64,000 nt of DNA from Octopus sinensis (lineage: Eukaryota), in assembly GCF_006345805.1 (NCBI RefSeq), contig NC_043016.1, positions 26,350,001 through 26,414,000 on the forward strand. Direction: 5' to 3'. The notes under the pieces were generated by a model. The model saw nothing but the letters and a program-made list of their open reading frames with translations. It made no database searches and was not told where the DNA came from. Shown here in pieces: positions 44,690 to 45,363 of this stretch (position 1 is the stretch's first letter; each line of letters begins with the position of its first letter). The translations under genes and the position numbers were made by a program.

Positions 44690-45363
44690 TATAGAGAGTT
44701 AACGTTAAGTGGCTAACTCCAGTGCTAGAAATAGCTCCTTATTCTGGTATAGCCACCCCGAAGTTGTTCCACAGAAGAATAACATTACCTTCCAATGTAG
44801 GGAAGCGAAATACAACGAAAGTAGATTAATACTGAACAATTGTTTCTTTATTAACATAATATGCAATTATACTCACATATTTGTCTATAATTCATCAGCA
44901 GTATTTGTATATGATACAATTTATCAGACCCACACGGGCGATAAAATACCCATGCGGTCTGATCGATTGCATACATAGTTGTGGTTTAGCTTCCCGCCAA
45001 AAGCATGCTAAGACTCCGTGGAAACCAATACCGCATACAATACTTGCTGCAGCATACTTATTTTATAAATTCATAAATGAGGGTGAAAAATTAGATATTA
45101 ATTTAATAATACCGTCAGTTTAACACCAAGTGGCCTAGCACATAGAAACCAGGGAGACAGTACAAATTTATACATAAATATAAGAGAGTTAACGTTAAGT
45201 GGCTAACTCTAGTGCTAGAAATAGCTCCTTATTCTGGTATAGCCACCGAAGTTGTTTCCACAGAAGAAATAACATTACCTTCAAGGTAAGGGAAGCGAAA
45301 TACAACGAAAAGATAGATTAATACTGAACAATTGTTTCTTTATCAACATAATATGCAATTATA
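44690..45363 (-). mobile_element. Non-coding 490 bp unit in partial tandem (1.4 copies) within (TA)n; retrozyme-like or non-autonomous Penelope-like
   Basis: 44694-44872 repeated at 45184-45363; contains an HHR and several hairpins. Confidence 0.8.
44828..44905 (-). ncRNA. Candidate minimal type I hammerhead, intact core
   Basis: AAUACUG-CUGAUGA-A.UUAU...AUAA.A-GAAAC-AAUU-GUU-CAGUAUU: perfect 7 bp stem I, palindromic tetraloop. Confidence 0.8.

Follow-up and report, generated by a model that had tools for sequence, protein, structure and literature searches.

Closest described systems and the class of the octopus element

The closest described systems are the metazoan non-LTR retrozymes and the Penelope-like elements, which Li et al. 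(2026; 10.64898/2026.07.22.740005) consider one lineage; animal retrozymes are known and their Penelope link has been argued in print, so the class itself is not new. The metazoan non-LTR retrozymes of coral, Mytilus and axolotl (PMC7229834) show a type I hammerhead, a non-coding unit with less than 50% GC, and a highly self-paired unit-length RNA in which the hammerhead is free to fold in the circle. The Penelope-like elements (PMC4209133, PMC8557442, PMC3846280) show a hammerhead near the 3' end with a long helix II, and in their typical layout a 5'-truncated copy comes before a full one (PMC8557442). They are inserted in AT-rich or (TA)n targets, with target-site duplications of 8-10 bp and microhomology at the 5' junctions (PMC3846280, PMC11167929). 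More distant systems are the Naiads, a (TA)n-targeting clade without canonical hammerheads, of which cephalopods contain only remnants (PMC8557442), and the non-autonomous elements of Chlamys, such as MRC1. The latter are, like the octopus element described below, non-coding Penelope derivatives with pseudo-LTRs and head-to-tail insertions, but belong to green algae and most lack canonical hammerheads (PMC8557442). The LTR retrozymes and TRIMs of plants also contain hammerheads and a non-coding core between direct repeats, but their hammerheads are type III and are accompanied by a PBS, a PPT and 4-bp target-site duplications (PMC7761336), all of them absent from the octopus element.

The window (the whole 64-kb stretch of Octopus sinensis DNA analysed) contains an element, E1, at 44694-45363 of the minus strand, which is probably a dispersed non-autonomous hammerhead retroelement, that is, an animal non-LTR retrozyme or mini Penelope-like element, with a unit of about 490 nt and a mechanism that we infer. 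Its anatomy, hammerhead core, strand-specific fold and junction motifs come from the sequence and its computation, and by these E1 appears retrozyme-like in its working and Penelope-like in its layout. As in the metazoan retrozymes, E1 shows a type I core and a short non-coding unit with GC below 50% and no LTR, PBS or PPT, and its unit-length RNA is predicted to be highly self-paired (z -7.3 in linear form), while its circular form would leave the hammerhead almost free to fold. The 490-nt unit compares with about 170-400 nt in the invertebrates of PMC7229834 and is within the 51-972 bp range of Li et al. (2026; 10.64898/2026.07.22.740005). The weak palindromic helix III is shared with HHR_Amex1 of axolotl, and a mismatch at the foot of helix II with HHR_Amex2, where it is U.U instead of the A.A of E1 (PMC7229834). 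E1 differs from these retrozymes in its 1.37 units with one complete hammerhead, in a 45-nt stem II without evident tertiary contact, in a (TA)n site with a readable junction, and in being known from DNA sequence alone. With the Penelope-like elements it shares a partial tandem which forms pseudo-LTRs with a hammerhead, the truncated-then-full order of copies, a long helix II and an AT-rich (TA)n target. Its candidate duplication of 9 bp would fall within their range of 8-10 bp, and above the 4 bp that the duplications of metazoan non-LTR retrozymes, when present, exceed. Both end 3' at an A/C-rich stem-loop, which lies 141-158 nt past the cut site in E1 and, as calculated, some 85-92 nt past it in Anolis (PMC11167929). 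Unlike the Penelope-like elements, E1 shows neither an ORF encoding RT and GIY-YIG, as an autonomous Penelope would, nor the G10.1-C11.1 pair. The original prediction of a non-LTR retrozyme mobilised by Penelope is thus sustained by several features, namely a hammerhead of type I, no coding capacity, 35% GC, a strand-specific fold, the partial tandem and the AT-rich target, while the mobilising partner is only a plausible assumption.

Layout, hammerhead and unit-length RNA of E1

E1 consists of 1.37 head-to-tail units (670/490), with a repeat offset of 490-492 bp. The 3' copy of the repeated segment of about 180 bp (44694-44871, minus strand) is pseudo-LTR-like and bears the downstream hammerhead half and a terminal hairpin. 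The upstream copy (45184-45363, minus strand) is 5'-truncated: it starts within the loop of stem II, so that the CUGAUGA is missing, and it contains the 3' strand of stem II, GAAAC, the palindrome, GUU site 1 and the 3' strand of stem I. Both copies are identical in 172 of 183 alignment columns, with three substitutions and eight gap columns in seven events, and a core of 310 bp separates them. The element lies between a left (TA)n tract (44659-44678) and a right (TA)n/(TATG)n tract (45370-45418), the pure (TA)n part of which is 45370-45387. E1 has no credible ORF: the longest stop-free stretch has 55 codons on the minus strand and 89 on the plus strand, two plus-strand open stretches match no Pfam family, and in protein searches one of them has no homologue and the other only two weak multi-stretch matches. 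This layout bears out the 1.4 near-identical head-to-tail copies between (TA)n tracts, without ORF, that had been predicted. No further copy of the 490-bp unit was found within the 64-kb window. The left (TA)n tract is abutted by a decayed DNA transposon (43810-44661), presumably Tc1/mariner, with imperfect inverted ends, a broken transposase-like frame and no Pfam match. A hAT-like element with similar inverted ends is located to the right of E1 (45420-47499), and seven of its 14 protein matches, including the best four, are named Octopus; this suits an octopus-like host, though such transposons may pass from one species to another.

The complete type I hammerhead of E1 is located at 44828-44905 of the minus strand, with the predicted cut of GUU site 2 at 44835/44834; GUU is a slower cleavage triplet than GUC. 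Stem I (44905-44899/44834-44828) contains seven Watson-Crick pairs out of seven, and the core shows CUGAUGA at 44898-44892 and GAAA at 44846-44843. Stem II has 45 nt, with an A.A mismatch, 4 bp, a second A.A and then an extended helix, and stem III is a single C-G pair which closes a palindromic tetraloop. A type I hammerhead with a stem I of at least 7 pairs appeared in 0 of 10,000 shuffles of E1, and with at least 5 pairs in two of 10,000. No Rfam match reached the gathering score anywhere in the window, and around E1 there are 17 matches up to E 10, all below their own gathering scores and none to a hammerhead. This ribozyme had been described as intact, and its conserved core is complete, but stem II opens with A.A at 10.1/11.1 and the usual conserved pair G10.1-C11.1 is absent. 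The minimal hammerhead of Penelope-like elements (Cervera 2014), with an extra nucleotide between 9 and 10.1 followed by G10.1-C11.1, likewise finds no G-C pair in E1; shifting the register so as to include an extra A and a U-A pair would cost +2.2 kcal/mol. A11.1 is present in both copies, and A10.1 may be a later disabling mutation, because it is seen in one copy only. A U.U at 10.1/11.1 is a known natural variant (PMC3088659; axolotl HHR_Amex2, PMC7229834), and no report of A.A at these positions was found in the hammerhead literature surveyed. Neither is there a recognisable tertiary contact between loop 1 and loop 2. The 10-nt palindrome of stem III (44835-44844, minus strand) has a second copy at 45327-45336, and two copies of the hammerhead co-fold as a symmetric double hammerhead (-38.2 vs -14.3 kcal/mol per monomer). 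Dimeric action is described for hammerheads with a weak, palindromic helix III (PMC4209133, PMC7229834), and the hammerhead of E1 is expected to need a dimer to cut.

The predicted cut-to-cut monomer (44835-45326, minus strand, 492 nt) is a branched rod with 67-68% of its bases paired, in which stem I brings both ends together with a pairing probability of 0.90. Its free energy is -146.5 kcal/mol in linear form (z -7.3) and -140.0 kcal/mol in circular form (z -6.9), reached in both cases by 0 of 100 shuffles. The complementary plus strand has -107.8 kcal/mol (z -3.0; 1 of 100 shuffles), and G.U pairs are 25 of 166 in the minus-strand monomer vs 11 of 150 in the plus strand. The most stable local hairpin (44923-44963, minus strand) contains helix 1 and a 7-bp inner helix, and its G.U pairs work on the minus strand only. 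Two internal pairings had been proposed for this RNA: helix 1 is recovered with a probability of 0.92, but helix 2 has a probability of 0.00 in 12 of 12 folding conditions. Helix 2 is complementary on paper, and was rejected as part of the dominant fold, on which 10 of its pairs could be imposed at a cost of 7.9 kcal/mol. The possibility that the circle hides its own hammerhead by self-pairing finds no support in the cost of forming the hammerhead within the circle, 1.7 kcal/mol; in most animal retrozymes the ribozyme is not blocked by self-pairing (PMC7229834). The 310-bp spacer pairs extensively with the repeated segment, through a long-range helix with a probability of 0.65-0.69. The 3' end of the element forms a 9-bp hairpin with an A/C-rich loop of 8 nt (44695-44720, minus strand), which includes the motif CTTAA-N-GTTAACT. 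The internal copy of this hairpin (45185-45210) has a probability of 0.95 and the terminal copy one of 0.38-0.88.

Predicted cleavage, junctions and template

The second GUU site (site 1) has its predicted cut at 45327/45326, 492 nt upstream of site 2, which agrees with the original prediction of a second cleavage-site half at 45320-45345 and of two minus-strand GUU sites one unit apart. E1 contains only one CUGAUGA catalytic half. In the predicted fold of the 1.4-mer, the palindrome copies at 44835-44844 and 45327-45336 pair with a probability of 0.93, in double-hammerhead geometry, and without constraints the only catalytic half folds onto the upstream site (stem I probability 0.63 vs 0.00 at the downstream site). 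After the upstream cut, the predicted probability of stem I at the downstream site is 0.23 at 37 °C and 0.43 at 20 °C, and this site would still require a stem III partner. Both sites exist as expected for monomer release, but the only catalytic half is predicted to arm the upstream one; with a single catalytic half, release from the E1 copy is possible and probably poor, and this copy is probably a poor source of new monomers. Li et al. (2026; 10.64898/2026.07.22.740005) define an active retrozyme by two consecutive complete hammerheads, and also count a category of dispersed 'monomers'. E1 shows one complete hammerhead and a 3' half, so it is not classed as an active retrozyme, and judged from its sequence it is a dispersed 'monomer' in these terms. 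In Xenopus, one of nine predicted retrozyme dimers cleaved in vitro and eight did not (10.64898/2026.07.22.740005).

The pattern TTATANATAAATATA, defined post hoc like the 3'-end motif, after both had been seen, has three occurrences in the window (0.01 expected), one at each end of E1 and one at its internal unit junction. The left 15-mer (44679-44693, plus strand) is identical to the internal one in 14 of 15 positions, and the mismatch would be a T.G in the DNA-RNA hybrid. The internal AU-rich 15-mer (45168-45182, minus strand) is a candidate priming site, directly 3' of the hairpin, and the right one is located at 45359-45373 of the plus strand. The candidate 9-bp target-site duplication (44685-44693 and 45365-45373, plus strand) corresponds to the last 9 nt of the left 15-mer and is within the right 15-mer; the 9-mer alone has 12 occurrences in the window, also inside the unit, and the window contains 105 (TA)n tracts of five or more repeats. 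The internal 15-mer pairs with 45054-45076 as part of a predicted helix of about 20 bp, equalled by none of 900 sampled TA-edge 15-mers (from 1,202 candidates) and by four of 1000 shuffles. Because it pairs in the unit better than these, the internal 15-mer looks element-borne rather than genomic; either flank version would pair to the same degree if placed at the internal position, so this comparison does not fully separate the two origins.

These junctions may be read as a target whose 14/15 match annealed to the RNA past the terminal hairpin, leaving a 9-bp duplication. In the mechanism proposed, a source locus would make tandem transcripts, whose palindromic stem III would let adjacent hammerheads cut as a double hammerhead into monomers of about 490 nt, and a host ligase may close these monomers. 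A Penelope-type RT/GIY-YIG protein acting in trans would then nick an interrupted (TA)n tract, and the nicked 3' end would anneal to the AU-rich 15-mer of the RNA past the terminal hairpin, which would constitute internal priming. The RT would pass both cut sites without scar and halt after 1.37 units, and repair would leave the duplication of about 9 bp. The purified Penelope protein of Anolis nicks AT-rich DNA and begins reverse transcription internally, at an AC-rich stem-loop that follows the hammerhead (PMC11167929). However, this protein primes without target homology, which conflicts with the annealing step proposed for E1, whose 3' junction is homologous to the RNA, and it does not need hammerhead cleavage, so that a circle is not required (PMC11167929). 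The left 15-mer could alternatively be a Penelope 'tail' (cf. PMC8557442).

The template had to be longer than a linear monomer, because on a linear monomer a start about 150 nt in would yield a copy of no more than that length, and in E1 both cut sites are crossed without scar. The original prediction took a more-than-unit copy as the product of reverse transcription around a circle; the 1.37 units are real, but a single monomeric circle should give identical halves, which would later drift mostly by substitution. A single pass round one circle thus fits poorly with halves that differ by seven indel events and three substitutions. Six of these seven events are homopolymer length changes, and all seven are within about 70 bp. 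In seven other repeat pairs of the window, all of at least 88% identity, the mismatches number 134 and the gap openings 20, and against them the indel excess of E1 has a p of 1.3e-4, or 0.02 in a conservative recount with the ambiguous patch scored as substitutions; this contrast is suggestive only, because the comparison pairs overlap in part and two of them are gap-rich themselves (11 per 29 and 6 per 13). The pattern suggests that a single circle fits less well than a multimer built of non-identical units, a pair of insertions or a local sequencing error. As template we tentatively favour a multimer, uncleaved or ligated, whose units differ slightly, over a monomeric circle, which we consider less likely.

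The same differences between the halves bear on the other explanations of the locus. If one family had inserted twice at a single target, in the order target-unit-target-truncated unit-target, the tandem would be uninformative on a circular or multimeric template. This would explain the differing copies and the presence of one 15-mer at all three junctions, and Penelope elements tend to insert beside existing copies (PMC6765202). Such a pair of insertions is nevertheless improbable, given an internal 15-mer that is built into the helix of the unit and looks element-borne, an argument tempered by the equal pairing of the flank versions. Clustered homopolymer indels are a signature of long-read error, and the partial copy or its indels could be the result of assembly or sequencing error or of a local DNA rearrangement. 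This explanation is very improbable: three of the seven other repeat pairs of the window are gap-free (524, 187 and 146 bp), the X-Y-X' layout is not the product of a simple tandem slip, and error could account for the indels but not for the hammerhead or the fold.

The class of E1 admits a further reading, as what is left of an autonomous Penelope (pLTR-spacer-pLTR) after internal deletion or 5' truncation, derived from uncleaved transcripts, with a passenger hammerhead and no unit-length circle. Penelope pLTRs bear hammerheads with a long helix II and a palindromic helix III (PMC4209133), cleavage is dispensable for Penelope insertion in vitro (PMC11167929), the retrozymes of Xenopus are homologous to pLTRs (10.64898/2026.07.22.740005), and the two classes, retrozymes and Penelope pLTR remnants, intergrade. 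The 310-bp spacer of E1, however, shows no ORF remnant, and its pairing with the repeated segment (0.65-0.69), together with the z of -7.3 of the whole 492-nt unit, points to selection on a small unit as RNA, which leaves a Penelope remnant unlikely, though somewhat less so than two insertions. An origin as a TRIM or plant-type LTR retrozyme, suggested by direct repeats of about 180 bp that flank a 310-bp core, or as a tRNA-derived SINE, is effectively refuted: there are no TG...CA ends, no PBS or PPT is seen by eye at the ends of the core, the repeat boundary runs through the hammerhead, which is of type I, and no tRNA and no Pol III A or B box matches were found with simple patterns.

Related elements, possible mobilising partner and meaning

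The window contains two other hammerheads. E2 (29088-29462, minus strand) is located between (TA)n tracts and shows a type I hammerhead with the core at 29396-29390, the cut at 29352/29351 and U.U at 10.1/11.1. E3 (55030-55148, plus strand) shows the core at 55036-55042, a predicted GUA cut at 55111/55112, with a (TA)n tract 37 nt further downstream, and also U.U at 10.1/11.1. The hammerhead descriptor thus gives three matches in the window, and in block-shuffled windows one match in four of 600 and two in none. In E1 and E2 stem II is laid out alike (mismatch, 4 bp, purine mismatch, G.U/A-U/C-G), and their hammerheads differ by five compensatory pair changes, two in stem I and three in stem II; the pair changes among E1, E2 and E3 were read by script, because MAFFT left the hammerhead 3' halves out of register. 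Both elements end at the (TA)n edge in the post hoc motif CTTAA-N-GTTAACT; of its three matches in the window, against 0.03 expected, E1 contains two and E2 the third. The overall alignment among the three elements is no better than that of shuffles, and the folds of E2 and E3 are not better than shuffles either (z -0.95 and +1.6); for both reasons, E2 and E3 could instead be truncated Penelope ends. The same stretch of 13 nt opens the 5' end of E2 (29450-29462) and the sequence after the (TA)n tract of E3 (55248-55260). A large palindrome, probably MITE-like, is located 150 bp from E2 (29618-29807), and others of the same kind, 84-94% self-complementary as a set, are found at 27549-27829, 40888-41136 and 11412-12162. 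A relaxed scan with five matches gave weaker hammerhead-like patterns at 7801 (plus strand) and 37481 (minus strand), which have no control and are kept out of the hammerhead count. A scan of prokaryotic genomes gave one match, which falls within an ORF of 307 codons in a Bacteroidota MAG, shows no similarity beyond the pattern and was attributed to chance.

We infer a Penelope partner for E1, as a plausible one, because none of the 225 ORFs of the window, all of them scanned, shows a GIY-YIG domain or a Penelope RT. The RVT_1 matches of the window are located at 18.8-19.4 kb, beside an endonuclease/exonuclease/phosphatase match at 17.3 kb, and at 23.3-24.2 kb. In O. vulgaris, 190 Penelope-like families occupy 6.83% of the genome and 31 of them were recently active (PMC13282606). 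No mention of a ribozyme or hammerhead was found in passages and supplement of that paper, and the hammerhead motif of E1 has no match in the 5,371 characters of its supplement (PMC13282606). The RVT_1 matches belong to two diverged LINE-like copies (16266-24236), 72% identical over 2.4 kb, the first of which contains the endonuclease match. Retroelement fragments with weak zf-RVT matches, which we take to resemble Dong/R4-type elements, are present at 50581-51904 and 60320-61022, near (ATA)n/(ATT)n arrays. Mariner-type transposase fragments (769-1459) show HTH_48 and Transposase_1 matches just below the cut-offs. The window also contains a degenerate (AT)n/(AC)n microsatellite block of 2.2 kb with extreme GC skew (12131-14312), a degenerate (TTAGGG)-like array (37572-37759) inside an inverted repeat pair (37254-37528/37865-38145), and an assembly gap of 100 N (24606-24705).

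No report of a cephalopod retrozyme was found in the open-licence literature, although supplementary lists may hold one. As a speculative extension, octopus genomes might contain dense, unannotated hammerhead mini-retroelements that target (TA)n, with a stem II mismatched at 10.1/11.1, a 3' CTTAA-N-GTTAACT signal shared by at least two of them, and, recorded at their junctions, homology-guided internal priming on an RNA that is multimeric or circular. The density of three hammerheads per 64-kb window has a 95% interval of 0.6-8.8 per 64 kb and comes from a window that was selected. According to a 2020 review, animal retrozymes show no such shared motif (PMC7761336). If the extension were true, this common 3' signal would supply the cis mark, so far missing, by which the mobilising Penelope family could be recognised. 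The E1 locus is useful because a dispersed copy of 1.37 units has readable ends, and it bears on which retrotransposon moves animal retrozymes and on whether the template is a circle.
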